From Candidatus Moraniibacteriota bacterium (lineage in GTDB: Bacteria; Patescibacteriota; Minisyncoccia; JAHIHE01; JAGLIN01), in NCBI GenBank assembly GCA_030641185.1, contig DAOWHY010000035.1, positions 1 through 55,025 on the forward strand: 55,025 nucleotides of DNA, read 5' to 3'. The notes beneath the pieces are model-generated. The model saw only the letters and a program-made list of their open reading frames with translations, had not been told where the DNA came from and searched no databases. Position numbers and translations under genes: made by a program. Of the stretch, positions 2,825 to 53,941 are shown piece by piece (position 1 is the first letter of the stretch; each line of letters starts with the position of its first letter).

Positions 2825-4585
2825 ATGGAGAATAAAAAACAAAAAACAATTTATCTAAATGCGGATGATGAAATTAATTTTATAATTGATAAGATTAAAA
2901 AATGTGAAGCAAAAGAAATTACGCTGATTATTCCTGAAAGCGCTATGGTTCTTCAAAATCTAATAAATCTCAAGGTGCTTAGGATGAACGCGAAAGAACT
3001 TGAAAAAGATATTTCAATAGTTACTATTGACGATGATGATTATTTTGAGACAGGAAATAAAATTGGAAATCGATCAAGTTCTATAAAGAATTTAATAGAT
3101 GAATCAGATGAAGAATTAAATAAGAAAAAAGAAAATGAAAGTGATGTTCCAAGTGTTTCTTTTGTTAAAAATCTGGAAAATAAAAAATCTGAAAGTAAAA
3201 CTGAAATGCGTGATATAATAAAAAAGAAAGAAATCAATACTGATGGCGCTGATAGCGCAGTCAAAGAAATAAGGGAAAAAAAAGAAGAGAGCTTGCTTCA
3301 ACAAAAAGAATTTAGTCAAAATGGAATTGAAAACGCAGAAAATAATAAAAACATAAATATTAGCAAAGTGAATGACTTTGAAAAATCAAAAAAACAGAGT
3401 AGGAGAAAAATAAATTTACTTCCGTCGCTAAGCTCAAGGTTTTTTGCCGGGTTTATCATTGTTTGCTTTACTACTGTTCTGGTAATTTTAGGGTTTGTGC
3501 TTCCTAAGTCAGATATAGTTATTACCTTGAAAACAGAAGCGTTAACATACGATTTTGAATTTGTGGCCGATGAATTAATAAATAAAATTGACTCAGTAAG
3601 CGATAAAATTCCGTCGGAAAAAATAGATATTATAAATGAAGAAAGTGGTAATTATCCAGCCACGGGAAAAAAGCATATTACAGAAAAAGCGGTAGGGAAG
3701 ATTACAATTTATAACGAGTGCTCCACTGGTTCGCAAACTTTAGTCGTTAATACTAGATTTCTCTCTAAGGAAGGAAAAATATTTAGAATAAAAAAAGCAG
3801 TTAAGATAGCTGGTTTTACTAAGCCTGAAGATAAAATTATTCCAGGAAGTGTTACGGTGGATGTTGTAGCTGAAGGGTCTGGCGAAAATTATAATATAAA
3901 TAGTACATCTTTTACTATACCTAGACTCCAAGAATTAAATAGTTGGAAATTCTCCTGTCTTTATGCTAGATCAGAACAAGCAATGTCTGGCGGAGTTGAT
4001 AGGGAAGTCTTATATTTTTCAGACAGCGATTATCTTACAGCCAAAGAAAAACTTGTAAAAATTGCAAAGGAAAAAAACGAGAAAGAATCTTCGGAGAAAT
4101 CTTCAGACAAATATGTGCTGTTAGAAAATTTGGAACAGAACGAAGAAGTTAAAATTGAAGATGATGTTAAAGTTGGCGATATTGTTGATAGTTTTCAAAT
4201 GACCGTTTCAGTAAAAACTACAGCTCTTTTTGCGACTAAAGACGATCTTGACGATTTAATAGATGAAAAAATCAGTTCAGATTTGAGTGATGATATAGAA
4301 CTCGTTGAGGGAAGCAGAAAATGGGAAGTTGGAGAAATAAATAAAGATGAAAATGGAAAAATGTCTATACCCGTTTCTGTTATCCAGAATTCAATTGCCA
4401 AAATTGACATTGATAAAATAAAAAACGAAATAGCTGGAAAAAACGAATTGGAATTACGAAAGTATTTTATTAACATAAAAGGAATTAAAGCAACGGATGT
4501 GGGTTTCTGGCCGTTTTGGGTAAAAAGTATTCCATCATCTTTGGATAAAATAAATATAACTATTGACATAAATAGTTCTATGTAG
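2825..4585 (+). CDS. hypothetical bitopic membrane protein with large extracytoplasmic C-terminal region
   Basis: 586-aa ORF. It has a K/E-rich N-terminal cytoplasmic part, one TM helix (FFAGFIIVCFTTVLVILGFVL) and then a beta-rich region. No motif recognised. Confidence 0.6.
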   Translation: MENKKQKTIYLNADDEINFIIDKIKKCEAKEITLIIPESAMVLQNLINLKVLRMNAKELEKDISIVTIDDDDYFETGNKIGNRSSSIKNLIDESDEELNKKKENESDVPSVSFVKNLENKKSESKTEMRDIIKKKEINTDGADSAVKEIREKKEESLLQQKEFSQNGIENAENNKNINISKVNDFEKSKKQSRRKINLLPSLSSRFFAGFIIVCFTTVLVILGFVLPKSDIVITLKTEALTYDFEFVADELINKIDSVSDKIPSEKIDIINEESGNYPATGKKHITEKAVGKITIYNECSTGSQTLVVNTRFLSKEGKIFRIKKAVKIAGFTKPEDKIIPGSVTVDVVAEGSGENYNINSTSFTIPRLQELNSWKFSCLYARSEQAMSGGVDREVLYFSDSDYLTAKEKLVKIAKEKNEKESSEKSSDKYVLLENLEQNEEVKIEDDVKVGDIVDSFQMTVSVKTTALFATKDDLDDLIDEKISSDLSDDIELVEGSRKWEVGEINKDENGKMSIPVSVIQNSIAKIDIDKIKNEIAGKNELELRKYFINIKGIKATDVGFWPFWVKSIPSSLDKINITIDINSSM

Positions 4586-4610
4586 TAGACTGCAAAAGTA
4601 GTTGATTCGT

Positions 4611-4680
4611 GTCATAGTGAGCTTGTCGAACTATGATAGGTTGGATGAGTCTGTTATCCTTCGACAAGCTTAGGATGACG
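4611..4680. repeat. family B' double-hairpin element (GTCATAGTGAGCTTGTCGAACTATGA ... ATCCTTCGACAAGCTTAGGATGAC)
   Basis: The same element occurs in the opposite orientation at 29139-29208. Confidence 0.85.
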
Positions 4681-4755
4681 AATAAAAGTAAATATTATTT
4701 TAAAGTATCAAGCTCAACTAGTGATACTAGTTGTTGTTTTGTTTACGAATAAAAA

Positions 4756-4858
4756 ATAGAAACTAATGGAAACTTGTAGAAACTGGTTGAAATTAATTGT
4801 CTTTAGAAAACAACAATTTAATTTCCATTAATTTCTATGAGTTTCTATAAATTTCTAT
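4756..4858. mobile_element. family H MITE-like element, intact copy of about 103 bp
   Basis: Terminal inverted repeats ATAGAAACTAATGGAAACTTGTAGAAA / TTTCTATGAGTTTCTATAAATTTCTAT. Other copies at 5146-5316 and 9011-9120. Confidence 0.8.
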
Positions 4859-4933
4859 TTATAGTAATAGTAATAGTTGTTTTGAAAATAAATAAAATTG
4901 TGAAAACATCAAAGTTTATTAATTTTGTAATTT

Positions 4934-5143
4934 ATGAAAGAAATAATACAAGTAGAAGGAAGCGTAACTGAAGTTTTGCCTGGAACAAAATTTAAAGTGC
5001 AAATTGATGATGGACATGAATTGCTGGCTCATATTTCCGGTAGAATGAGAATGAATTATATAAAGATATTACCGGGAGATAAAGTGGTTGTTGAGATGAG
5101 TCCTTATGATTTGACAAAAGGAAGGATTGTGAAGAGAGGGTAG
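4934..5143 (+). CDS. infA: translation initiation factor IF-1
   Basis: 69 aa with an S1-like fold signature: [60 protein letters not shown]. Confidence 0.95.
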
Positions 5144-7469: not shown

Positions 7470-7562
7470 TTATATTGCTAAATTGTCATATTGTTAAATT
7501 ATTACGCATAGCGTAATAGTATGGCAAGGGACAATTTAACAATTTAACAATTTAACAATTTA
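7470..7562. repeat. family G inverted repeat
   Basis: TTATATTGCTAAATTGTCATATTGTTAAATT ... (CAATTTAA)n. It fills the rpsD-rpoA spacer. Confidence 0.75.
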
Positions 7563-7573
7563 ATTTAAAAAAT

Positions 7574-9557: not shown

Positions 9558-9577
9558 ATATAAATTGTTAAATTGAT

Positions 9578-9762
9578 TTCTACCCGGCTTTAGCCGAGGG
9601 TCGGCGAGGTTTTAACCTCGCGGGAAAAATATATAAACAAATATAAAATCGTTTGAGATTAATTTTTCAAAATTAGATTTCATAATGCATAAAATATAAA
9701 TTTATTGAATTAAATCTCGTGAGGTTAAAACCTCATTGACCGTGCGCTAAAGCGCCGTAGAA
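9578..9762. mobile_element. 185-bp MITE-like element with terminal inverted repeats of about 47 bp
   Basis: The left arm TTCTACCCGGCTTTAGCCGAGGGTCGGCGAGGTTTTAACCTCGCGGG pairs with the reverse complement of the right arm, TTCTACGGCGCTTTAGCGCACGGTCAATGAGGTTTTAACCTCACGAG. It lies between rplM and rpsI. Confidence 0.85.
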
Positions 9763-9782
9763 AAAATCTAAATTATGTAACT

Positions 9783-13674: not shown

Positions 13675-14682
13675 ATGTTTGTAAAGAAAATAGGAATAGA
13701 TCTTGGAACCGCCAATATATTGGTATTTTTGCCTCAAAAGGGCGTTGTTGTAAACGAGCCATCTGTTATTGCGGTATCTATTGAAGATAATAAAATTTTG
13801 GCTGTTGGAAATAAAGCAAAAGAAATGTTGGGAAAAACCCCGGAAAGTATATCCGCAAGTCGTCCGGTTAAAGATGGTGTAATTGCCGATTATAAAGTTA
13901 CGGAAGCAATGATGCGGTACTTTATAAATAAAGTAAGTGGAAAAGTTCGATTTTTTAAGCCCGAAGTCATAGTTTCCGTTCCTGCTGGAATTACTTCAAC
14001 AGAAAGAAGGGCGGTTATTGACGCTACAATGCAAGCTGGCGCGAAGGCCGCCTATGTTGTTAAAGAACCGATTTTGGCCGCCATTGGCGCTGGAATTCCG
14101 ATAAATACGCCTTTTGGTAATATGATTATAGATATTGGCGGAGGAACTTCAGAAGTGGCTGTTATTTCTTTAGGAGGAGTTGTGTCATTTTCTTCGGTCA
14201 GAGTTGGCGGGGATAAATTGGACAAGGCAATTTCTGAATTTGTCAGAAAAAAGCATGGAATAATTATTGGCGACAGAAATGCGGAAGAGATAAAAATAAA
14301 AATCGGTAGCGCGATCATTTCAGAGGAAGATAATTTTATGGAGGTGAGAGGAAGAGATTTGATTTCGGGATTACCGAAGACAATAAAAATAAGCTCAAAT
14401 GAAATTACGGAGGCGATTCAAGATGAACTTCAGGAAATAATCAGGGCTGTAAAAAATGTCCTTCAAAATACACCGCCAGAATTATCTTCAGATGTTATTG
14501 ATCGCGGAATGGTTTTAAGCGGCGGCGGCGCGCTTTTGAAAAATCTGGATAAATTATTATCGCAAGTAACAGGCGTTCCATGCTATGTCGCGGACGATCC
14601 ATTATTGTGCGTTGCGAAAGGAACTGGTAAAGTTTTGGATGATTTGGATTTGTATAAGCGGAGCGTGATTAGTAGTAAGTAG
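13675..14682 (+). CDS. mreB: rod shape-determining actin homolog MreB
   Basis: IGIDLGTANILV, NEPSVIA, RPVKDGVIADY, DIGGGTSEVAVISLGG, VLSGGGALLKNLD. Confidence 0.95.
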   Translation: MFVKKIGIDLGTANILVFLPQKGVVVNEPSVIAVSIEDNKILAVGNKAKEMLGKTPESISASRPVKDGVIADYKVTEAMMRYFINKVSGKVRFFKPEVIVSVPAGITSTERRAVIDATMQAGAKAAYVVKEPILAAIGAGIPINTPFGNMIIDIGGGTSEVAVISLGGVVSFSSVRVGGDKLDKAISEFVRKKHGIIIGDRNAEEIKIKIGSAIISEEDNFMEVRGRDLISGLPKTIKISSNEITEAIQDELQEIIRAVKNVLQNTPPELSSDVIDRGMVLSGGGALLKNLDKLLSQVTGVPCYVADDPLLCVAKGTGKVLDDLDLYKRSVISSK

Positions 14683-14737
14683 TTAGTAGTAAGTATCAAG
14701 CGTACTTGATACTTACTACTTGATACTTACTACTTAC
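14670..14737. repeat. family I long palindrome
   Basis: AGTAGTAAGTAGTTAGTAGTAAGTATCAAGCG / CGTACTTGATACTTACTACTTGATACTTACTACT. It covers the last three codons and stop of mreB and ends 2 nt before the next start codon. Confidence 0.85.
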
Positions 14738-14739
14738 AC

Positions 14740-15828
14740 ATGAACATTGGCATTGATGCTTCACGGGCATTTATAAAAGAAAAAACTGGAATAGAAGAAT
14801 ATTCTTATCAGTTAATCAGAAATTTGGCGATGATGGATTTAAAAAGCCATCAAATTTTTTTATACGCGAGAAAAAATTCTGTTATAGATTTTAATCTGCC
14901 AAGTAATTTTAAATTAAAAATTATTTCTTTAAATAAACTTTGGACGCAAATTGGACTGGCATCTGAAATGATGAAAAATAAACCGGATATTTTATTTATT
15001 CCTTCTTATACTATTCCTCAAACACATCCAGCTAAAACAATCGTGACGATTCATGGTTTGGAATATAAATATTTTCCCGAATGTTATTCTATTAAGGAAA
15101 GATTATTTTTGGAATTAAATACTTTGTTCTCAATAAAATGGTCAAGCAAAGTTATTGTTCCGTCGGAGAGTACAAAGAGGGATTTGATTAAGTTTTATAA
15201 AGTTGATGGAGATAAAATTAAAGTTGTTTATCATGGGGCAAATAGTAGCAAGTATCAAGTAGTAAGTGTTAGGCAAGATTTTAAAAAAAGTTTTAATATT
15301 TTGTTTGTTGGGAGGTTGGAAAAAAGAAAAAATATAGTGAATTTAGTTAAAGCGTTTGAGCTGTTTAAAAAAAGCTACAAGCTACAAGCTACAAGCTACA
15401 AGCTAATCTTGGTTGGCAAAGCGGGATTTGGCTTTTCGGAAATAAAAAAAGCGATTGAAGAATCGTTATTTAAGAAAGACATTATTTTAAAAAATTATAT
15501 TACAGAAGCAGAAAAGGATGAGTTATATAAAAAATCCGATTTGTTTGTTTTGCCTTCTTTGTATGAGGGATTTGGTTTGCCAGTTTTAGAGGCAATGAGT
15601 TATGGCGTTCCAGTAATTTGTTCTAATGCTTCATCTCTGCCAGAAGTTGCGGGAGACGCGGCTTTATTAGTTGATCCAAACAACATTCAAGAAATTGCTG
15701 ACGCAATGAATAGAGTTTTTAGCGATGATGGTTTGAGAAATAAAATGATTGAAAAAGGATTTAAGAATATGGAGAAGTTTAGTTGGGGGAAGTGTGCGGG
15801 GGAGACGATGGAGGTGTTGCTAAATTGA
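14740..15828 (+). CDS. glycosyltransferase, GT4 family
   Basis: C-terminal GT-B motifs: LFVGRLEKRKN, LPSLYEGFGLPVLEAMSYGVPVICSNASSLPEVAGDAALLVDP. It contains repeat-derived in-frame segments at 15241-15273 and 15373-15405. Confidence 0.88.
   Translation: MNIGIDASRAFIKEKTGIEEYSYQLIRNLAMMDLKSHQIFLYARKNSVIDFNLPSNFKLKIISLNKLWTQIGLASEMMKNKPDILFIPSYTIPQTHPAKTIVTIHGLEYKYFPECYSIKERLFLELNTLFSIKWSSKVIVPSESTKRDLIKFYKVDGDKIKVVYHGANSSKYQVVSVRQDFKKSFNILFVGRLEKRKNIVNLVKAFELFKKSYKLQATSYKLILVGKAGFGFSEIKKAIEESLFKKDIILKNYITEAEKDELYKKSDLFVLPSLYEGFGLPVLEAMSYGVPVICSNASSLPEVAGDAALLVDPNNIQEIADAMNRVFSDDGLRNKMIEKGFKNMEKFSWGKCAGETMEVLLN
15373..15405 (+). repeat. heptanucleotide tandem repeat (AGCTACA) x4.7 inside the GT4 coding sequence
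   Basis: Read directly: AGCTACAAGCTACAAGCTACAAGCTACAAGCTA, 33 nt, translated as SYKLQATSYKL. It is the reverse complement of the family J motif AGCTTGTAGCT seen at 23303-40 and 51088-120. Confidence 0.9.
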
Positions 15829-15834
15829 TAAATT

Positions 15835-15997
15835 GGAGTTCAGGTTTTAACCTGTAAAATTTTACGCACTACGACGGTGCCATAGTCCAAAACGGAGCCG
15901 CAGCGTAGTGAGGCTGTGGCACTGCATTTGCAAATCTTGCATTTGGGATTCCACAGCTCTGCGGAGACTATGGAACCCTCGGCGGAGTGAACTCCAG
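15835..15997. mobile_element. composite family E/D MITE-like element, 163 bp
   Basis: Outer inverted repeats GGAGTTCAGG / (C)TGAACTCC(AG), with family D hairpins inside. Confidence 0.8.
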
Positions 15998-16324: not shown

Positions 16325-17575
16325 ATGTCAACCCCAAAATCCAAAAAACCAAAAATAGCGATTGTTCACGACTTCCTAACTTACTTCGGTGGAGCCGAAA
16401 GGGTTTTGATGTCGTTGCATGAATTATATCCCGAAGCGCCGATTTATACTTTATTGTATGATGAGAAGAAAATGAAGAGATATTTTCCAGAGGCGAAAAT
16501 AAGAAGTTCGTTTTTGAATAGATTGCCGAAGTTTATAAGAAAGCGAAAAAAGTATTTACTACCACTGATGCCGACTGCGGCGGAGACGTTTGATTTGAGG
16601 GATTTTGACATTGTAATTTCCAGTTCCAGTTCATTTGTGAAAGGAATAATTACAAAACCAAAAGCGATTCATATTTGCTATTGTCATACTCCGACAAGAT
16701 TTCTTTGGGACTGGCATTATAATTATCTTGAGGAAAATAAAATAAAAGGAATTAAAAAAATATTTATTTTGCCAATTTTGCATTATTTAAGAATGTGGGA
16801 TAAATCAGCTTCGGAAAGAGCTGATTATTTTATTGCTAATTCGGAGCATACCGCAAAGAGGATTAAGAAGTTTTATGGAAGAGGAAGTGAAGTAATTTAT
16901 CCGCCAGTTAATACTGTCATTGCGAGGAGCCTGAGCGAGCGTAGCGAACGAAATGGCGACGAAGCAATCCCGTTATTAAATTCTTCGCGCGTAGTTGCGG
17001 GATTGCTTCGTCGCCCTGCGGGGCTTCTCGCAATGACAGATAAAAGTAAAGATTATTTCCTCATCGTTTCTCGTTTAAGCCCATACAAAAAAATAGATAT
17101 TGCTGTTGAAGCGTTTAATAAATTGGAATTGCCGCTTGTTATAATAGGCGAGGGAAGCGATAAAAATAAACTGGTAAAAATAGCGAATAAAAATATTAAA
17201 TTCCTTGGATTTCAGTCGGAAGAAAAACTTGCGCAATATTACGAAAATTGTTACGCGTTTATTTTTCCGGGAGAGGACGATTTTGGAATAACTCCGATTG
17301 AGGCAATGTCTTTTGGAAAGCCGGTTTTGGCATACAAAAAAGGAGGCGTTTTGGAAACAGTAATTGAAAATGAAACGGGAGAATTTTTTGATGATCCAAT
17401 CCCTGAAATTTTAGCGGATGGAGCGAGAAGATTAAAAAATAATTATAGTAATTACAACGCTGAAAAAATAAAAAAACAAGCAGAGAAATTTTCGGAAGAA
17501 AGATTTAAGGAGAAAATAAAGAAAGTTGTAGAAAACACAATAGCATTGTCATCCTTGTTTCAGAATAACAGATAG
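16325..17575 (+). CDS. glycosyltransferase, GT4 family, carrying an in-frame palindromic repeat insertion
   Basis: IAIVHDFLTYFGGAERV, ANSEHTAKRIKKFYGR.SEVIYPPV, FLIVSRLSPYKK, FPGEDDFGITPIEAMSFGKPVLAY. The inter-domain linker is occupied by repeat 16915-17038. Confidence 0.88.
   Translation: MSTPKSKKPKIAIVHDFLTYFGGAERVLMSLHELYPEAPIYTLLYDEKKMKRYFPEAKIRSSFLNRLPKFIRKRKKYLLPLMPTAAETFDLRDFDIVISSSSSFVKGIITKPKAIHICYCHTPTRFLWDWHYNYLEENKIKGIKKIFILPILHYLRMWDKSASERADYFIANSEHTAKRIKKFYGRGSEVIYPPVNTVIARSLSERSERNGDEAIPLLNSSRVVAGLLRRPAGLLAMTDKSKDYFLIVSRLSPYKKIDIAVEAFNKLELPLVIIGEGSDKNKLVKIANKNIKFLGFQSEEKLAQYYENCYAFIFPGEDDFGITPIEAMSFGKPVLAYKKGGVLETVIENETGEFFDDPIPEILADGARRLKNNYSNYNAEKIKKQAEKFSEERFKEKIKKVVENTIALSSLFQNNR
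16915..17038. mobile_element. family A palindromic element inserted in frame in the GT4 gene
   Basis: TGTCATTGCGAGGAGCC...GACGAAGCAATCCCG ... CGGGATTGCTTCGTC...CTCGCAATGACA. Intergenic copies lie at 21755-812 (half), 38501-605 and 46073-212. Confidence 0.9.
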
Positions 17576-20756: not shown

Positions 20757-20829
20757 CTCCAAAAAGCCCTTTACAAAAATAAAATATTTATATAGAATAA
20801 AGCTATTGAAAAAAATAAATATCTACAAA

Positions 20830-21747
20830 ATGATTAAAGTTGAAAATCTGGCAAAAAAATATGGCGAACTTGCCGCACTGGACGGAGTGTCTTTTGAGAT
20901 GCAGGAAGGTGAAGTAATTGGTATCTTAGGACCAAATGGGGCAGGGAAAACAACGTTGCTTCGAATATTGGTTATGTTTCTTGAACCGACTTCGGGGAAA
21001 GTTGAAATTGACAATCTTGATCTTGGCAATCCGCTTTATCAGCAGGATATTAAAAGTAAAATTGGTTATCTACCGGAGAATGCTCCTTTATATGAAGATA
21101 TGACTGTTTGGGAATATTTAAGTTTTACGGGTAAAATGCAGGGGATTAAGAAAAATAATTTAAGTGAAAAAATCTTAAATGTTTTAGAAAAATGCGGGTT
21201 GAAAGACAAGCAAAATACGGAAATTTCAATTTTATCAAAAGGCTATCGGCAGAGAGTGGGAATTGCTCAGGCGCTTATTCACGATCCAAGAATTGTAATT
21301 TTAGACGAGCCAACAACCGGTCTTGATCCAAATCAACGAATTGAAATCAGGGATTTAATCAAAGAAATTGGCAAATCAAAAACTGTAATTTTATCCAGCC
21401 ATGTTTTATCTGAAGTGCAGGCAACTTGTTCGCGAATCTTGATTATTAATAAAGGTAAGATTGTTGCCGATGACACACCGGAGAAATTGGAAAATAAAAA
21501 TAGAAGCCAGTCAATGATTAATGCCGAAGTTGAAGAATTGGGGGCTAATATAGTTCCAAGACTAAAATTAATTGAAGGGATTAGAGAGGTTGAAATCAAT
21601 GGCAATAGAATTACAATTACTACTACTTTGGAATTTGATCTTAGAAAAGATATTGCAAAAATTATTGTTGAAGAAAACAGCGGGCTTTTAGAACTGACAG
21701 GGCAACAGGCTAACTTGGAAGATGTTTTTATAGAGTTGACGAAATAG
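20830..21747 (+). CDS. ABC transporter ATP-binding protein (GldA-like)
   Basis: Walker A GPNGAGKTT, signature LSKGYRQR, Walker B ILDEPTTGLD. Start set at the ATG giving MIKVENL. Confidence 0.9.
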   Translation: MIKVENLAKKYGELAALDGVSFEMQEGEVIGILGPNGAGKTTLLRILVMFLEPTSGKVEIDNLDLGNPLYQQDIKSKIGYLPENAPLYEDMTVWEYLSFTGKMQGIKKNNLSEKILNVLEKCGLKDKQNTEISILSKGYRQRVGIAQALIHDPRIVILDEPTTGLDPNQRIEIRDLIKEIGKSKTVILSSHVLSEVQATCSRILIINKGKIVADDTPEKLENKNRSQSMINAEVEELGANIVPRLKLIEGIREVEINGNRITITTTLEFDLRKDIAKIIVEENSGLLELTGQQANLEDVFIELTK

Positions 21748-31265: not shown

Positions 31266-32954
31266 CTAAATCCACTTTACCATATATCCATCTTCAAGTC
31301 TATATCCCAATTTCCGATAATAATCTCTTACTCCCACACCGCTAATGACGGCGATTTTTTTTAGATTAAATTCTTCTTGTGTAATTTTTTCCGCTTCCAA
31401 AATTAGTTTTTTTCCCAGTCCAATATGCTGGGGAGATTTTTTGTTTTTAGATTTTATTGGCATCATTTGTCCATAAGTGTGAACCTCACGAATGATGGAC
31501 TGGAGTTCAGGTTTTAACCTGTAAGGCTTACATTCTAAAGAGTGAACTTCGGAATTGATTCTCAATCTCAACAATGAATAAAGATTCTTTCTTTCTCTGT
31601 CTTCAAAACTCAAGAATATTTCTTTGCCATCAGAAGCGTTATAATCTTGGCGGAATAATTTTAAATTTTTAGATGCCGCAAATTTATTTCTTATCTCCCG
31701 ACATCTTATGCATTTACATTGCCAGCCTTCTTCTTCTGATTTTTTCTTTAAAACCTGTCTTAAATTAGAAACTTTATTTCCAGCAATTATACTTGTTGAC
31801 GGAATATCGCGAATGAGGCGAGTAATACGGACATAGTAGGGCATCATCTTTTTTATTTCCGCTAATAATTCTATCAGTTTTTTGTCAGAATATGGTTTAT
31901 ATTTGCCATTTTTCCACCACTTATAAATAGATGAGTCTTTAACCACAACGCACGGGTAAATTTTTAGCATGTCAGGTTGGAAGTTTGGATTGGAAAATAA
32001 TTCTTTAAACATTTCTAAATCTCTTTTATAATTTGATCCCGGAAGATTCGGCATCATATGATAATTTATTTTAAACCCGGCTTCTTTCAATAATCTTGTC
32101 GCTTCAATCGTCGTGGCAACAGAATGTCCGCGTTTGTTTAATTTTAAAATGTCGTCATAAATACTTTGAATGCCAAGCTCAACTCGCGTCGCGCCCAATT
32201 TTCGCATGCTAATAATTTCTTTCGTGTCAATATAATCCGGCCGCGTTTCAAGAGTTAAGCCGATAATTCTGTGCTTTGATTTCTCGTTTGTTTTTTGAAG
32301 TTGGAGCAGAGTATGTTTAACGATGTCCGACGACGAAATCCTCCACGCTCCCTTTGTGAAAGAGGGAGTCGTGCTTCCCCTTTGTAAAAGGGGGCGGGGG
32401 GGATTTCGTCGGTCGATTTCATTACATGCCCGAAAACATTCTTTCACAAACCACGTTTGATATTGTTTTGGAAAATATGAAAAAGTCCCACCCATGATGA
32501 TCAATTCAATCTTGTCTGTTTTATGTCCGGTCGCTTCAAGCGATTTTATTCTTGCCGCCACTTGTTTGTAAGGATGAAAGTCCGTCAAAATCGCTCGCAT
32601 CACTGCCGGTTCATTTGATAAATAACTCTTCGGCATATCTTTTTCCGTCGGGCAATAAACACAAGTTCCGGGACAAGCGTATGGTTTTGTTAAAACGGCA
32701 ATAACTGCCACGCCGGACAATGTCCTGATATTTTTAGTTATCAAAAGATTTTCAATATTTTCATTCGGCTTTATTTTTTTATTCTTTACCATCTTTCTAT
32801 AAACTTCCAAAAGTTCAATGTTTGTCGGATTTGGCAAGCTGAATTTCTTTGAAGCTTTTCTTTTCAATTTCAAAAAATACTCATTCTGATTTTTGATGGG
32901 GATTTTTTTGAGGAGTTGTTTGATGATGTATTCGTTGATCATAAATTTTGACAT
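31266..32954 (-). CDS. elp3: Elp3-type radical SAM / GNAT acetyltransferase (tRNA U34 carboxymethylation enzyme homolog)
   Basis: Radical-SAM cluster motif CPGTCVYCP, IMGGTFS, GLTLETRPDYI, VELGIQSIYDDILKLNKRGH, HMMPNLPGS. C-terminal GNAT: IIREVHTYGQ, QHIGLGKKLILEAEKI. Two palindromic repeats are inserted in frame. Confidence 0.9.
   Translation of the reverse strand: MSKFMINEYIIKQLLKKIPIKNQNEYFLKLKRKASKKFSLPNPTNIELLEVYRKMVKNKKIKPNENIENLLITKNIRTLSGVAVIAVLTKPYACPGTCVYCPTEKDMPKSYLSNEPAVMRAILTDFHPYKQVAARIKSLEATGHKTDKIELIIMGGTFSYFPKQYQTWFVKECFRACNEIDRRNPPRPLLQRGSTTPSFTKGAWRISSSDIVKHTLLQLQKTNEKSKHRIIGLTLETRPDYIDTKEIISMRKLGATRVELGIQSIYDDILKLNKRGHSVATTIEATRLLKEAGFKINYHMMPNLPGSNYKRDLEMFKELFSNPNFQPDMLKIYPCVVVKDSSIYKWWKNGKYKPYSDKKLIELLAEIKKMMPYYVRITRLIRDIPSTSIIAGNKVSNLRQVLKKKSEEEGWQCKCIRCREIRNKFAASKNLKLFRQDYNASDGKEIFLSFEDRERKNLYSLLRLRINSEVHSLECKPYRLKPELQSIIREVHTYGQMMPIKSKNKKSPQHIGLGKKLILEAEKITQEEFNLKKIAVISGVGVRDYYRKLGYRLEDGYMVKWI
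31503..31550. repeat. 48-nt internally deleted family E element, in frame inside elp3
   Basis: GGAGTTCAGGTTTTAACCTGTAAGG...AGAGTGAACTT keeps both ends of the 163-bp element at 15835-15997. 48 nt equals 16 codons, contained within the SEVHSLECKPYRLKPELQ stretch on the minus strand. Confidence 0.75.
32331..32411. repeat. 81-nt palindromic element in frame inside elp3
   Basis: Terminal inverted repeats CGACGAAATCC / GGATTTCGTCG enclose two hairpins (CTCCCTTTGTGAAAGAGGGAG; TCCCCTTTGTAAAAGGGG). 81 nt equals 27 codons. This is the only copy in the window. Confidence 0.65.
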
Positions 32955-32968
32955 TTGATATTAAATTT

Positions 32969-33169
32969 TGTCATCCTGAACTTGTTTCAGGATCTTTTAT
33001 CTATTACGCTAATTTATTAAATAATTCACTAGACATTTTGATTAAACTGAAAACATAATTAATGTATTTAAAAGATAATCGTGTTTGCGTCGTAGATGAA
33101 ATATAATTTTAAAATAGAATAGATTAAACCTAAAATAGAATAGATTCTGAAACAAGTTCAGAATGAAAG
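32969..33169. mobile_element. family B full-length MITE-like element, about 200 bp
   Basis: Ends TGTCATCCTGAACTTGTTTCAGGATC / GATTCTGAAACAAGTTCAGAATGA. Each end is itself a hairpin. A second full copy lies at 53722-53924. Confidence 0.85.
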
Positions 33170-33264
33170 AACTTTTTCTGAGCGTCAAGTAAAAATTTGG
33201 CAGTTTTTTTAAATATTTAAAATATGTTATAATAAAATCAATAAAAAGTAAGTTTATTAACCAA

Positions 33265-37791: not shown

Positions 37792-38493
37792 ATGGGTAGA
37801 AAAAAATTATTAAAACTACAGAGAAAAGAGGAAAAAAAACTTGAAGTGATTAATAAAAAAGAAAGCAAGAGGAAAACGGTAATTAGAATTGTTTTTTTGG
37901 TGTTGCTTATTTTTGTGGTTTATCAATTAAATATTGCTATGAATAAAAATTCTGAAAATAATAATGTGAGCGTGAATGATGTTGTTGACGAAAATAATAA
38001 TGAGGACAATAAAAATAACGGCGAGAACAATGCGGACAATGTTGATTTACGAATTGCTGTTATTGAAACAAATAAAGGAAATATAAAATTAGAATTATTT
38101 ACAAATGACGCGCCGAAGACGGTGGAGAATTTTGTGAAGTTGGCAAGCGAGAATTTTTATGATGAAACAAAATTCCACAGAGTAATTTCAGATTTTATGA
38201 TTCAAACAGGGGACCCGCTTAGCAAAGATGATGATCCATCTAATGACGGTACGGGCGGGCCGGGATATTCTTTTGAAGATGAAATAAATTCTCATAAAGT
38301 TGAAGTCGGCTCTTTAGCGATGGCAAATTCCGGACCGAACACGAACGGCAGTCAATTTTTTATTGTTACCGAAAGAGCGCAACCGCATCTTGATGGCAAG
38401 CATACCGTTTTTGGAAAAGTGCTTGAAGGGATGGAAGTGGTGAGAAGTATTGAACAGGGGGATGTGATGGAGAGGGTTTATATTGCTGAGTAA
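37792..38493 (+). CDS. membrane-anchored cyclophilin-type peptidyl-prolyl isomerase
   Basis: TM helix [16 protein letters not shown], an Asn-rich linker, then the cyclophilin core: [47 protein letters not shown]. Confidence 0.9.
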
Positions 38494-38500
38494 AAAAATC

Positions 38501-38605
38501 TGTCATTGCGAGGAGTCCCGCAGGACGACGAAGCAATCCCGTGACTAAATTCCTCGTGTGTAGTCACGGGATTGCTTCGGTCGCTGCGGCTCCCTCGCAA
38601 TGACA
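38501..38605. mobile_element. family A element, short full copy of 105 bp
   Basis: TGTCATTGCGAGGAG...GACGAAGCAATCCCGTGAC ... GTCACGGGATTGCTTCGG...CCTCGCAATGACA. Confidence 0.88.
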
Positions 38606-40165: not shown

Positions 40166-40248
40166 AAATTGTTATATTGCTCTATTGTTAAATTGTTATG
40201 CATAGCACGATTATTTAACAATTTAACAATTTAACAATTTAACAATTT
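40166..40248. repeat. family G inverted repeat
   Basis: AAATTGTTATATTGCTCTATTGTTAAATTGTTATGCATAGC ... (TAACAATT)n. It fills the VanZ-mraY spacer. Confidence 0.75.
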
Positions 40249-40253
40249 AATTC

Positions 40254-42662: not shown

Positions 42663-42704
42663 AAAACACAAAAATAAATATTAATAATCCAAATATTATG
42701 TTAG
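42661..42704 (+). repeat. 44-nt direct duplicate of the sequence preceding and starting the D-aminoacylase gene
   Basis: AAAAAACACAAAAATAAATATTAATAATCCAAATATTATGTTAG versus 44455-44498, with one mismatch. It includes ATGTTAG, the start of the downstream CDS. Confidence 0.9.
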
Positions 42705-42706
42705 TT

Positions 42707-42736
42707 GGCTCCATAGTCCACGTAGGGCTGTGGAGC
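42707..42736. repeat. family D hairpin, inverted orientation
   Basis: GGCTCCATAGTCCACGTAGGGCTGTGGAGC. Confidence 0.75.
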
Positions 42737-42791
42737 TCAAGTGCAAACGGTTTGCATTTAAGCTATTTTAAAAAACTAAAAACAAAAAAAA

Positions 42792-44456: not shown

Positions 44457-44498
44457 AAAACACAAAAATAAATATTCATAATCCAAATATTATGTTAG
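44455..44498 (+). repeat. second copy of the 44-nt direct repeat
   Basis: See 42661-42704. Confidence 0.9.
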
Positions 44499-46069
44499 AC
44501 ATATTAATAAAAAATGGAACTGTGATTGATGGAACTGCGACCAAAGGAAAAATCGCTGATGTTGGGATAGAGAAAGATAAAATAACTGTTGTTGAAAAAT
44601 TAGATGATAATACTAAAGCGGCTAAAATTATAGACGCCGAAGGAATGATTGTTTGCCCCGGGTTTATTGATATCCTTGACCATTCAGACAATTTTTGGAC
44701 TTTATTTTCAATACCAAGATTAGATAGCAAAATAACACAAGGAATAACCACCATAATCGGCGGAAATTGCGGATCATCGTTGGCGCCAGTATTAGGAGAA
44801 AATTCAGTTAAAGCGATTAGCAAATGGGTTGATGTTGGTAATACTAATATAAATTGGATTAGAACCAAGGAATTCCTTAATGAAGTAGAGAAAAGAAATA
44901 TTGGAATTAATTTTGGAACTTTAGTTGGTCATGAAACATTAAGGCGTGGATTGTTAGGAGACGAGGTTAGAAGAATAACGGACGAAGAAATAAAAATGAT
45001 TGGCAGAATGCTTTCTGATAGCCTGGCGGACGGGGCCTTTGGAATGTCAACCGGACTTGTTTTTTCACATGCCAAAATGACCACAATCAGTGAAATAAAA
45101 TATTTAACAGAAATATTAAAAGCAAACGATTCTTTTTATGCCAGTCATATCAGGGGAGAAGCCGAAGAATTGCTTCCAAGCATAAATGAAACAATTCAAA
45201 TCGGAAGGGAAACCAGGGTTCCTGTTGAAATTTCACATCTAAAAGCTATCGGAGAAAGATACTGGTCTGATATGTTTCGCGCGCTGGAAATGATAAATGT
45301 CGCCAACGAAGAAAATGTTGAAATTGGTTTTGATATATATCCCTACAATACGACTGGTTCGGTTTTATATATTCTTTTACCCGATTGGGTTTCAAGGGGA
45401 GGGAGAAAAAAAATGATTTCAAGATTAAAAGATTTGGATTTACGAAATAAAATAATAAAAGAGATAAAAGAAATGAATTATGACTACGAAAATATTATAG
45501 TTTCAATTTGTCCAAAATTAAAAGAAATAGTTGGAAAGAGGATTACAGATATTGCGTCCAAACAAGAAATAAGTTCAGAAGAAGCCATAATAGAGCTTTT
45601 AATCAGCGCTAACGGGCATGTTATAGTGTTTGATAGAAAAATTTTAAGCGAAGAAAATATTGAATTGGCGCTAAAAAATCCCCATTGCATAATTTCTTCA
45701 GCTGATGCTGCCTATAATGTTGAATATATAAGAACGGGGGAAATCATTCATCCAAGATGCTTTGGAACATTCCCAAGAATTTTGGGAAGGTATGTCAGAG
45801 AGCAAAAAGTTTTAAATATAGAGGACGCTATAGAAAAAATGACTTCCAAGCCGGCTAAAAAAATAGGATTGAAAAATAGAGGAATTTTGAGAAAAGGATT
45901 TTACGCGGATGTTGTCGTTTTTGATCCTAAGTCTGTCATAGATAAAGCCGACTTTAATAACCCATATCAATATTCAGAGGGAATTGAGCAAGTGGTTATT
46001 AATGGGAAGATAGTTATAGAAAATGGGGGACATACAGGGGAGTTGGCGGGAAGGGCTTTGAGGAAATAA
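44492..46069 (+). CDS. amidohydrolase of the N-acyl-D-amino-acid deacylase (D-aminoacylase) family
   Basis: ILIKNGTVIDG, VCPGFIDILDHSD, GGNCGSS, YASHIRGE, VEISHLKA, C-terminal DVVVFDP. Confidence 0.8.
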   Translation: MLDILIKNGTVIDGTATKGKIADVGIEKDKITVVEKLDDNTKAAKIIDAEGMIVCPGFIDILDHSDNFWTLFSIPRLDSKITQGITTIIGGNCGSSLAPVLGENSVKAISKWVDVGNTNINWIRTKEFLNEVEKRNIGINFGTLVGHETLRRGLLGDEVRRITDEEIKMIGRMLSDSLADGAFGMSTGLVFSHAKMTTISEIKYLTEILKANDSFYASHIRGEAEELLPSINETIQIGRETRVPVEISHLKAIGERYWSDMFRALEMINVANEENVEIGFDIYPYNTTGSVLYILLPDWVSRGGRKKMISRLKDLDLRNKIIKEIKEMNYDYENIIVSICPKLKEIVGKRITDIASKQEISSEEAIIELLISANGHVIVFDRKILSEENIELALKNPHCIISSADAAYNVEYIRTGEIIHPRCFGTFPRILGRYVREQKVLNIEDAIEKMTSKPAKKIGLKNRGILRKGFYADVVVFDPKSVIDKADFNNPYQYSEGIEQVVINGKIVIENGGHTGELAGRALRK

Positions 46070-46072
46070 AAT

Positions 46073-46212
46073 TGTCATTGCGAGGAGCCTGAGTGGACGC
46101 AGTGAACGAGAAGGCGACGAAGCAATCCCGCAACTAAGCTCTCTGTGCGTAGTTACGGGATTGCTTCGTCATTCCACTACGCTATCGCTCCGTTCCATTC
46201 CTCGCAATGATA
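46073..46212. mobile_element. family A element, 140 bp
   Basis: TGTCATTGCGAGGAGCCTGAGTGGACGC...GACGAAGCAATCCCGCAAC ... GTTACGGGATTGCTTCGTC...CCTCGCAATGATA. Its right end supplies an upstream in-frame ATG for the tgt ORF. Confidence 0.88.
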
Positions 46213-53586: not shown

Positions 53587-53721
53587 TATCCCGCTTAATT
53601 ACGATAAATTATTAAAAGCGCTTTTTGTTTTTAATAGTTTAGTGATATAATGAATTTAGATTAGTGGAAAGATGTATTGCAGAGGAAATTTTGGGTTACT
53701 GAAATATGATTGTGTAGAATT

Positions 53722-53924
53722 TGTCATCCTGAACTTGTTTCAGGATATTTCAGCCATTATATTGATTTAGCCCACAAGTCACAAAGCATTTAACTAAACC
53801 GAAAACACAATTGTCGTATCAAACGGGAAGACACTTGAATTTTCATTGTAAACGAAAGGCAATACTGAATAGTACAAATTAAAACTTAAAATGTAAAAGA
53901 TCCTGAAACAAGTTCAGGATGACA
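53722..53924. mobile_element. family B full-length MITE-like element, 203 bp
   Basis: TGTCATCCTGAACTTGTTTCAGGAT ... ATCCTGAAACAAGTTCAGGATGACA. It ends 17 nt before the dnaG start codon. Confidence 0.88.
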
Positions 53925-53941
53925 GAATCTAAGTTATCAAT

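Follow-up and report, generated by a model that had tools for sequence, protein, structure and literature searches.

A 124-nt palindromic repeat, of a family that we call A, lies in frame inside the gene for a GT4 glycosyltransferase in the genome of a Candidatus Moraniibacteriota bacterium (Patescibacteria, or Candidate Phyla Radiation (CPR)). It is very probably a translated and probably neutral passenger, akin to repetitive extragenic palindromes (REPs) and Rickettsia palindromic elements (RPEs), that settled in a tolerant hinge of the enzyme and was later inverted and trimmed in relatives. We analysed it within a stretch of 55,025 nt (contig DAOWHY010000035.1 of assembly GCA_030641185.1, forward strand), hereafter the window. 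An initial annotation, made from the letters of the window alone, had pointed out the palindrome and its open frame; beyond this, we describe recurrent colonisation of the same hinge, a series of inverted and deleted forms, and element ends that are near-invariant across bacteria.

The palindrome and its host gene

Positions 16915-17038 folded as a single long hairpin with an outer stem of 18 bp, an inner stem of 19 bp, two modules that do not complement each other and a loop of some 23 nt (Table 1). The RNA fold reached -72.5 kcal/mol (z -8.8) and the DNA fold -42.5 kcal/mol (z -7.8), and fold z across family A copies ranged from -7 to -12. The terminus TGTCATTGCGAGG occurred at seven sites in the window, counting both strands and allowing at most two mismatches (16915(+)/17026(-), 21755(+), 38501(+)/38593(-) and 46073(+)/46200(-)); 0.70 were expected, and none of 100 shuffles reached seven. 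Terminus counts and fold together bear out the palindromic repeat of roughly 124 nt that had been described here, and the three further copies named with it are indeed intergenic, each 3-7 nt past the upstream stop codon. Family A is thus represented in the window by three dimers and one singlet, with one of four copies intragenic. When relatives are included, the gap past the stop codon was 3-18 nt at seven intergenic sites.

The terminal inverted repeats are 12-13 nt long (TGTCATTGCGAG(G) and its complement). Window copies carry the tag TGTC at both outer ends and the tail CCC(G), whereas the commonest metagenome and Novosphingobium form ends in CCA(G); CGTAGT is conserved in the spacer of CPR copies. 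Six intergenic copies measured 105 or 139-141 nt, lengths that are mostly not multiples of three, and those of 139-141 nt carry two long modules in the alignment. Single family A arms folded no better than shuffles (z +1.7, 0.0 and +1.4): the stable structure is the dimer, not the single arm. The description of the element as similar to a miniature inverted-repeat transposable element (MITE) holds for its terminal inverted repeats and fails for target-site duplication, none of which was visible at eight junction pairs (window copies, L004 and L005).

The open reading frame (ORF) of the host gene reads through the element without a stop (...VIYPPVNT-VIARSLSERSERNGDEAIPLLNSSRVVAGLLRRPAGLLAMT-DKSKDYFLIVSRL...). 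Pfam assigned Glyco_transf_4 to residues 22-197 and Glycos_transf_1 to residues 239-388; because the first domain ends at 197 and the second starts at 239, the insert occupies the whole interval that separates the GT-B halves, where it had been placed originally. The net insertion is 123 nt, or 41 codons, one terminal base of the palindrome also serving as the third position of codon Thr197. The linker has a G+C content of 50%, compared with 36% for the gene. The nearest homologues carry the annotation glycosyltransferase and come from metagenome-assembled genomes (MAGs) of Candidatus Parcubacteria, Paceibacterota or Patescibacteria.

Structure prediction, which had been suggested as a way of seeing whether the insert forms a loop, gave an AlphaFold2 model from 39 orthologues with a predicted template modelling score (pTM) of 0.74. 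Residues 200-240 had a predicted local distance difference test score (pLDDT) of 24-39 and were almost without secondary structure; of the flanks, the C-terminal domain was predicted well and the N-terminal one with no more than moderate confidence. Foldseek matched the model to the GT4 GT-B structures MshA, BshA and PimA, and the nearest solved sequence was the C-domain of the mannosyltransferase WbaZ-1. The 41-residue insert is therefore best described as a predicted disordered loop at a site that the fold would tolerate.

Across 351 codons of the flanking domains, seven pairwise comparisons with relatives gave a ratio of nonsynonymous to synonymous substitution rates (dN/dS) of 0.06-0.09, and catalytic-region residues such as E317, D318, D319, G321 and E326 were invariant in the orthologue alignment. 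Both observations point to purifying selection on the flanking domains and to an enzyme that stays functional. The alternative is an artefact or a dead gene: the repeat may mark an assembly chimera, or the ORF may be a pseudogene whose intact counterpart lies elsewhere. Misassembly is classically associated with repeats, and only 55 kb of the genome is visible. Yet the exact gene with its insert was present in a second assembly (ENA ERZ23498525, L211), a third (ENA ERZ23498458, L212) differed from the window gene by eight substitutions, one of them inside the element, and related versions were found in NCBI, JGI and ENA MAGs. Just one further GT4 gene lies in the window, and its product matches the host protein at 26% identity, over the C-domain alone. 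Given the low dN/dS and the agreement of three assemblies from different samples, we rejected both forms of this alternative, which the initial annotation had raised against itself, and regard it as extremely improbable.

Table 1 Positions in the window of the host gene, the parts of the inserted element and the other repeats of families A and B.
Feature	Position	Strand	Basis and remarks
Host gene, GT4 family GT-B fold glycosyltransferase (WbaZ-like), intact, 416 aa	16325..17575	+	ORF, Pfam, Foldseek, dN/dS
Family A palindromic repeat (dimer of two inverted units)	16915..17038	+	In frame, apparently translated; 41 aa, residues 198-238
Outer stem, left arm, beginning with TGTCATTGCGAGG	16915..16932	+	Pairs with 17021-17038 in the minimum free energy fold; terminus conserved in all copies
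Left variable module X, CTGAGCGAGCGTAGCGAACGAAATGG	16933..16954	+	Copy alignment; not complementary to the right module
Inner stem, left arm, holding the core GACGAAGCAATCCCG	16955..16973	+	Pairs with 16997-17015; core invariant in the alignment
Apical loop or spacer (…TTAAATTCTTCGCGCGTAGTT…)	16974..16996	+	Conserved among CPR copies; in L006 and L004 inverted with the modules
Inner stem, right arm (CGGGATTGCTTCGTC…)	16997..17015	+	Fold
Short right module (part of GCCCTGCGGGGC)	17016..17020	+	Far shorter than in intergenic copies
Outer stem, right arm, end CTCGCAATGACA	17021..17038	+	Terminus search, fold
Family A half-element (single unit)	21755..~21812	+	Intergenic, 7 nt past the stop of ORF 20806-21747
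Family B hairpin repeat, in frame, 107 nt, GC-rich, -58 kcal/mol	32327..32433	-	Inside the ELP3-like radical-SAM ORF 31266-32954(-)
Family A full element, 105 nt	38501..38605	+	Intergenic, 7 nt past the stop of ORF 37792-38493; DNA fold z -12.5
Family A full element, 140 nt	46073..46212	+	Intergenic, 3 nt past the stop of ORF 44492-46069

An empty site and its repeated colonisation

Using the N- and C-domains as separate tblastn queries, we surveyed the linker in 91 sequences, comprising the window, its syntenic relatives and 80 GTDB species representatives. The empty site that an orthologue alignment had been expected to reveal was present in all 45 loci from outside the Patescibacteria, among them Clostridia, Chlamydiae, Cyanobacteria, Acidobacteriota and Nitrospirota: their linker measured 42-63 nt, mostly exactly 42 nt (14 aa), with the form 'VDxxxFxxxxxxxD'. 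The possibility that orthologues all carry a comparable non-repeat segment of equal length is thereby set aside. Patescibacteria linkers spanned 45-231 nt (15-77 aa), and the matches of the two domains shared one frame in 91 of 91 sequences.

Many of the long Patescibacteria linkers are strong hairpins (-31 to -79 kcal/mol) belonging to families unrelated in sequence. At least eight such families were found there, and none in the 45 non-CPR loci. Family A occupies the linker in the window and in L001, L004, L005 and L006, with a remnant in L009. A family W (TGGTTCCATAGTCC...GGACTATGGAACCA) was found in L014, L018 and L045 and in part in L019, a CGTC-1-type unit (TGTCATTCCCG...GGGAATCC) in L033, and fragments of family B (GACGAAATCCCCCC...CCCCCTTTGCGAAAGGGGG) in L003, L007 and L033; further hairpins fill the linkers of L030, L031, L034, L035/L038, L037/L039/L040 and L041. 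A number of these repeats turned up again at other places in the same loci or in related ones, W and B also in the window. In L014, L018 and L045, family W reads in frame as WFHSP…LWNQ.

Among the 114 closest database proteins with both flanking motifs, 32 had a linker of more than 30 aa, and CGTC-1-type peptides (CHSRxxGNP) lie in the GT4 linker of P0010, P0053 and P0054. Besides the linker, orthologues varied in length at the N-terminus and C-terminus only, and the C-terminus of P0005 is a CGTC-1-like peptide. Short unstructured linkers are also common among CPR orthologues (for example, L012, L015 and L020, at 0 to -3 kcal/mol). As judged from these alignments, many hairpin families have repeatedly settled in a single GT-B hinge in Patescibacteria.

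Inversion, deletion and the open frame

Close relatives share a conserved gene order of mreB, a GT4 paralogue, a small ORF, the GT4 gene studied here, a gene for a large secreted protein and NlpC/P60. The junctions of the insert (AATAC/TGTCATTGC...GCAATGACA/GATAA, slashes marking the boundaries) were identical in the window, L001, L004, L005 and L006. L006 and L004 hold the same 124-nt element inverted in place: without gaps, the window element matched the reverse complement of the L006 element at 113 of 124 positions, compared with 61% identity in the direct orientation. Short module, long module and loop are inverted together, such that module X stands on the right arm as its reverse complement in both relatives. 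Two other relatives have lost one arm through in-frame deletions, of 66 nt between GCAAT repeats in L001 and of 69 nt between ATTGC repeats in L005, which leaves linker folds of -26 and -20 kcal/mol, respectively.

All these versions keep the frame open. Of the six frames of the GT4 copies, just +1 and -1 are open, exactly those that the two orientations need, whereas in the six intergenic copies the count is 6 of 36. The open frame in the GT4 gene is therefore a product of selection rather than a property of the repeat. The stop-free reading of the element claimed at the outset stands, and conservation of the frame in relatives suggests that it is translated.

This record also bears on whether the insert is removed, an option raised in the initial annotation, by RNA splicing or processing, by ribosomal bypassing (as in T4 gene 60 and the byps of yeast mitochondria) or by protein splicing, with a short mature linker as the outcome. 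The perfect stem would place the two junctions side by side in the RNA, and GC-rich mobile hairpins that ribosomes bypass are present in yeast mitochondria. Against removal, the insert and its derivatives, inverted and deleted forms included, have lengths divisible by three and are free of stops in either orientation; the selected openness of the frame would be needless if the insert were skipped; and the L001 and L005 derivatives cannot form the hairpin. At the gathering score, Rfam gave no intron or other family match at the element in a scan of the whole window, and for the element alone at a relaxed E-value it gave only generic hairpin (miRNA) matches far below threshold. Forty-one residues are far too few for an intein, and the insert starts with Val and ends at Thr/Asp, without the intein Cys/Ser...His-Asn and Cys/Ser/Thr junctions. 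A matching pair of take-off and landing codons is missing, as is a stop at the 5' junction. We consider removal highly improbable.

Nor does the inserted peptide show signs of constraint. Between L006 and L004 its dN/dS was about 1, a rough value from an ungapped alignment that is shifted in one module, and the two orientations encode unrelated interiors (VIARSLSERSERNGDEAIPLL... versus VIARNSTERRSNPVTTREEF...). The peptide looks unconstrained, on this evidence from sequence comparison. A loop recruited for a protein function, such as a new interaction or membrane contact, would account for its persistence in several lineages that have diverged by 0.27-0.70 at flanking synonymous sites, and it has been proposed that protein function is compatible with segments derived from RPEs (PMC10969869). 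A recruited loop fits poorly, however, with the unrelated interiors, with deletions that take away half of the insert, with the rough dN/dS, with a model that gives no confident structure there, and with sister lineages that carry wholly different inserts or none. We think recruitment very unlikely.

The age of the insertion is less straightforward. In the clade of P0020 and L009 the right end of the A insert alone remains, and in P0041 of that clade a different A-type insert of full length occupies the same junction (VNT/VIARERMKRQ…FTSLAMT/DINKN); these orthologues are about 73-77% identical to the window protein. Because both forms occupy the same junction, insertion of A is either old or has recurred exactly there. 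In a neighbour-joining tree of the flanking domains the B-type linker was basal, and one B-type sequence, L003, was also nested beside the window within the A-type clade, which rules out a single ancestral insertion followed by plain vertical descent. Elsewhere in these loci, L004 and L005 have intergenic A copies 3' of rplQ and 3' of mreB that the window, L001 and L003 lack, and the copy at the rplQ site differs in orientation between L004 and L005.

The inversion invites a more active reading, in which the TGTCATTGCGAG termini are recombinase sites, insertion is targeted, an invertible cassette toggles between two 41-residue loops, and the hairpin tunes expression. If true, CGTC-like repeats would be an active, site-directed system for protein diversification in CPR; we consider it quite unlikely. 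In the window, L006 and L004, position 13 of the terminal repeats reads G on the left and the complement of A on the right, a pattern that is only suggestive of inversion by crossover inside the repeats. As proof of crossover it was discarded because L005 breaks the pattern.

A neutral passenger and its difficulties

Taken together, the findings lead us to the following history. Family A is a widespread non-autonomous palindrome of two inverted units, [T/C]GTC-ATTGC-variable centre-GCAAT-CC, around a short spacer, whose usual site in the AT-rich Patescibacteria genome is a few bases 3' of stop codons, inside transcription units. One copy presumably entered the 14-codon hinge between the Rossmann-like halves of the GT4 enzyme. 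Since the net 123 nt are stop-free in the frame used, ribosomes would read through them and add 41 residues, an extra loop that the GT-B hinge may tolerate with the enzyme remaining functional. In sister lineages the DNA was later inverted where it stood and shortened by deletions at microhomologies, selection leaving only in-frame, stop-free versions. By analogy with REP/REPIN elements, copies may have been mobilised in trans in the form of a single-strand hairpin, or may have multiplied through recombination or gene conversion among themselves.

Several points weigh against this history of a neutral passenger. Translation of the insert is something that we infer from frame conservation, and its lack of function is likewise presumed. 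The B-type L003 within the A clade requires allelic recombination or repeated events. Divergence between the window and L006 elements (8.9% of sites) is lower than synonymous divergence in the flanks (dS 0.27), which suggests that either the stems are constrained or the copy has been refreshed by gene conversion; the DNA may thus not be strictly neutral. Finally, pure tolerance may be an incomplete explanation for at least eight families in one short linker.

The last two points are also those that favour keeping the hairpin for use at the RNA level, as a site of ribosome pausing that aids folding of the N-domain or as an RNase III-type cleavage or stability switch. On that account the recurrence of unrelated hairpins in the linker would reflect selection, not mere tolerance, and their number, their absence from the non-CPR loci, the frequency of long linkers among close homologues and the slower divergence of element stems relative to flanking synonymous sites would all follow. 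Yet L001 and L005, which have lost one arm, show the same purifying selection; many CPR orthologues have short unstructured linkers; and other tolerant spots have received insertions too, namely the P0005 C-terminus, loops of the paralogue and the ELP3-like gene. No terminator-like site was predicted at the element and no T-run lies 3' of the hairpin, and a terminator role was dropped. We regard an RNA-level use, the main rival, as unlikely and retain the translated passenger as the preferred explanation.

Family A beyond the source genome

A metagenome scan with the pattern TGTCATTGCGAG-N8-38-GACGAAGCAATCC, which leaves right arms unconstrained, returned at least 120 matching stretches. Among the matches listed, contigs ranged from 31 to 71% G+C and the commonest form was TGTCATTGCGAGGAGCGAAGCGACGAAGCAATCCAG-loop-CTGGATTGCTTCGCTTCGCTCGCAATGACG. 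Named hosts include Novosphingobium resinovorum, N. aromaticivorans, Methylosinus, Methylocystis and Legionella plasmids. In these cultured Novosphingobium strains, which are Alphaproteobacteria, family A occurs at no fewer than 40 places on one replicon, N. resinovorum pSA1 (L233), and a copy on N. aromaticivorans pNL2 (154842-154925, L232) lies 14 nt past a stop codon; the Novosphingobium copies are unannotated. Many metagenome and Novosphingobium copies bear the end tag CGTC. In unrelated bacteria (contig G+C 39-55%), family A, as single units or dimers, also lies in frame in UvrB, FolD, SAICAR synthase (PurC) and a WecG/TagA transferase (contigs L127, L202, L174 and L135).

The terminal and inner pentamers of 98 right arms, again among the matches listed, covary perfectly: ATTGC is paired with GCAAT in 69, ATCGC with GCGAT in 10, CTCGC with GCGAT in 1 and ATCCC with GGGAT in 1, and no arm mixed ATTGC with GCGAT or ATCGC with GCAAT. 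This had suggested that each arm is a self-folding REP, an idea that we abandoned because single arms fold like shuffles; shared ancestry of the arms explains the covariation equally well. Searched against a set of 5.8 billion proteins, the 41-residue insert peptide had a single match, in an ORF of 53 aa. IMG/VR contained 19 contigs matching family A, a number that makes phage transfer unlikely as its main vector. Family A is not special to the source genome, and its ends, as far as the matched sequences go, are nearly invariant across very different bacteria.

One contig, Ga0207055_1035 (L097), carries family A at 3908-4975 as a tandem array of 8.8 copies with a period of 121 nt and 97% identity, unlike the dispersed dimers elsewhere.

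Other repeats in the window

The insert of family B in the ELP3-like radical-SAM domain is translated in frame as …IDRRNPPRPLLQRGSTTPSFTKGAWRISSSDI…, and an ELP3-like orthologue in L009 (76% identical) lacks 22 of its residues. Inverted dimers of TGTC-ATCCTGAAC-TTGTT-TCAGGAT lie at 32963-33174 and 53715-53931; their units have the textbook shape of a CGTC-tagged REP, with tag, stem starting AT and 5-nt loop. Copies of family W (TGGTTCCATAGTCC…GGACTATGGAACC) lie between genes of the window, at 15870-15995 and 42704-42755.

The neighbouring GT4 paralogue (window 14740-15828) is decorated in relatives, with NPPNPLFQRGNRTPPLVKGAGG in a loop in L005, NQLRRRHSGMSPSQ in L004 and L007, and KSKVHKVK in the paralogue's own linker in several relatives (among L003, L004, L005 and L007); the window copy is without these inserts. 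A GC-rich inverted repeat at 9577-9763, with arms of 49 nt that are 78% complementary and 89 nt apart, stands between genes presumed from synteny to be rplM and rpsI. AT-rich intergenic repeats form a separate class: AACAATTT units at 2787-2814, 7533-7566 and 40213-40250, and a perfect AT-rich hairpin at 14671-14734 directly 3' of mreB. No tRNA genes were found in the window.

Significance

These results extend Rickettsia-style coding palindromes to the Candidate Phyla Radiation. The hinge of one enzyme offers a natural experiment, with an empty site at 45 loci in other phyla set beside many apparently independent hairpin insertions in Patescibacteria. Within it a single element is seen intact, inverted in place and deleted at microhomologies, each form apparently filtered for an open frame. 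The series illustrates how selfish hairpin DNA may lengthen proteins in streamlined genomes and which GT-B positions would tolerate insertion, and it calls for caution in the annotation and structure prediction of CPR proteins. Ends that stay nearly invariant in hosts of 31-71% G+C, among the matches listed, in a family with no known transposase, provide a good handle on the spread of CGTC-type REPs.

Comparison with known palindromic systems

The resemblance to RPEs proposed in the initial annotation is supported by the empty-site orthologues, the synteny, the purifying selection and the structure model. RPEs are palindromes of about 100-150 bp that occur between genes and in frame in housekeeping genes (Ogata et al. 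2000 and 2002, as reviewed in PMC10969869), and in R. conorii nearly half of them lie in ORFs (PMC10969869). Like RPEs, family A sits in a small, AT-rich genome and would be translated as an extra peptide at a fold-compatible site of a gene that appears to remain functional. Unlike RPEs, its host phylum is Patescibacteria and most of its copies are intergenic. We know of no report for RPEs of in-place inversion or of one linker colonised by many families. A limited literature search found no description of in-frame palindromic repeats in CPR, and a full-text search for strings of the element sequence returned unrelated primer matches only.

GC-rich palindromic clusters are also known from yeast mitochondria, including an in-frame cluster in var1 and the bypassed byps, which the ribosome skips and whose frame need not be kept. 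Family A resembles these clusters as a GC-rich mobile hairpin within the coding sequence of an AT-rich genome. The yeast system is organellar and, unlike byps, every version in the GT4 linker is in frame and stop-free.

With MITEs such as Correia, Nezha and Chunjie, family A shares small size, a non-coding nature, terminal inverted repeats and in-frame insertion into a gene, and it differs from them in lacking target-site duplication at the eight junction pairs. To our knowledge, no insertion sequence with family A ends is recognised as its cognate, no transposase search having been made. REPINs are hairpin-forming doublets of GTAG-type REPs and are linked to a RAYT transposase gene (Bertels & Rainey 2011, PMC3116915). 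Family A is likewise a non-autonomous, many-copy pair of inverted units forming a hairpin of about 100 nt, with singlets as apparent decayed remnants; its terminal tag, TGTC, is not that of the GTAG group, and no RAYT gene was seen, none having been sought.

The closest parallel is with the other of the two superfamilies, GTAG- and CGTC-tagged, into which REPs have been sorted (Di Nocera, De Gregorio & Rocco 2013, PMC3733652). CGTC units begin with CGTC or TGTC (or CCTC), their stem of 8-9 bp starts with AT and encloses a loop of 4-5 nt, and their tail is CCA; they are found mostly as inverted dimers with a spacer, at most 20 bp from the 3' end of an upstream ORF (PMC3733652). They have no known transposase, and many copies are intragenic and in frame, notably in uvr genes (PMC3733652). 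Family A has the CGTC/TGTC tag, the AT stem start (ATTGC...GCAAT) and a tail beginning with CC as CCA does, forms inverted dimers near the 3' ends of the ORFs upstream, and has in-frame intragenic copies, UvrB included. Its ends (CGTC-ATTGC...GCAAT-CCA) agree with the ends that can be deduced from the CGTC-3 peptides VIAGLDPAIH.../...AMT, and no family A strings or peptides were found in the supplements of PMC3733652. Each family A unit, however, pairs through ATTGC/GCAAT only, over 5 bp, around a variable centre of 18-45 nt. Because this departs from the stem of 8-9 bp and loop of 4-5 nt, we filed family A as CGTC-like and not under CGTC-1 to CGTC-4. In R. conorii, CGTC-1 corresponds to RPE-6 and CGTC-4 to RPE-4 (PMC3733652), and through the tag shared with these two, family A is probably kin to RPEs. 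In-frame palindromes of the REP and RPE kind are already known as such; their occurrence in Patescibacteria is what the present case adds.

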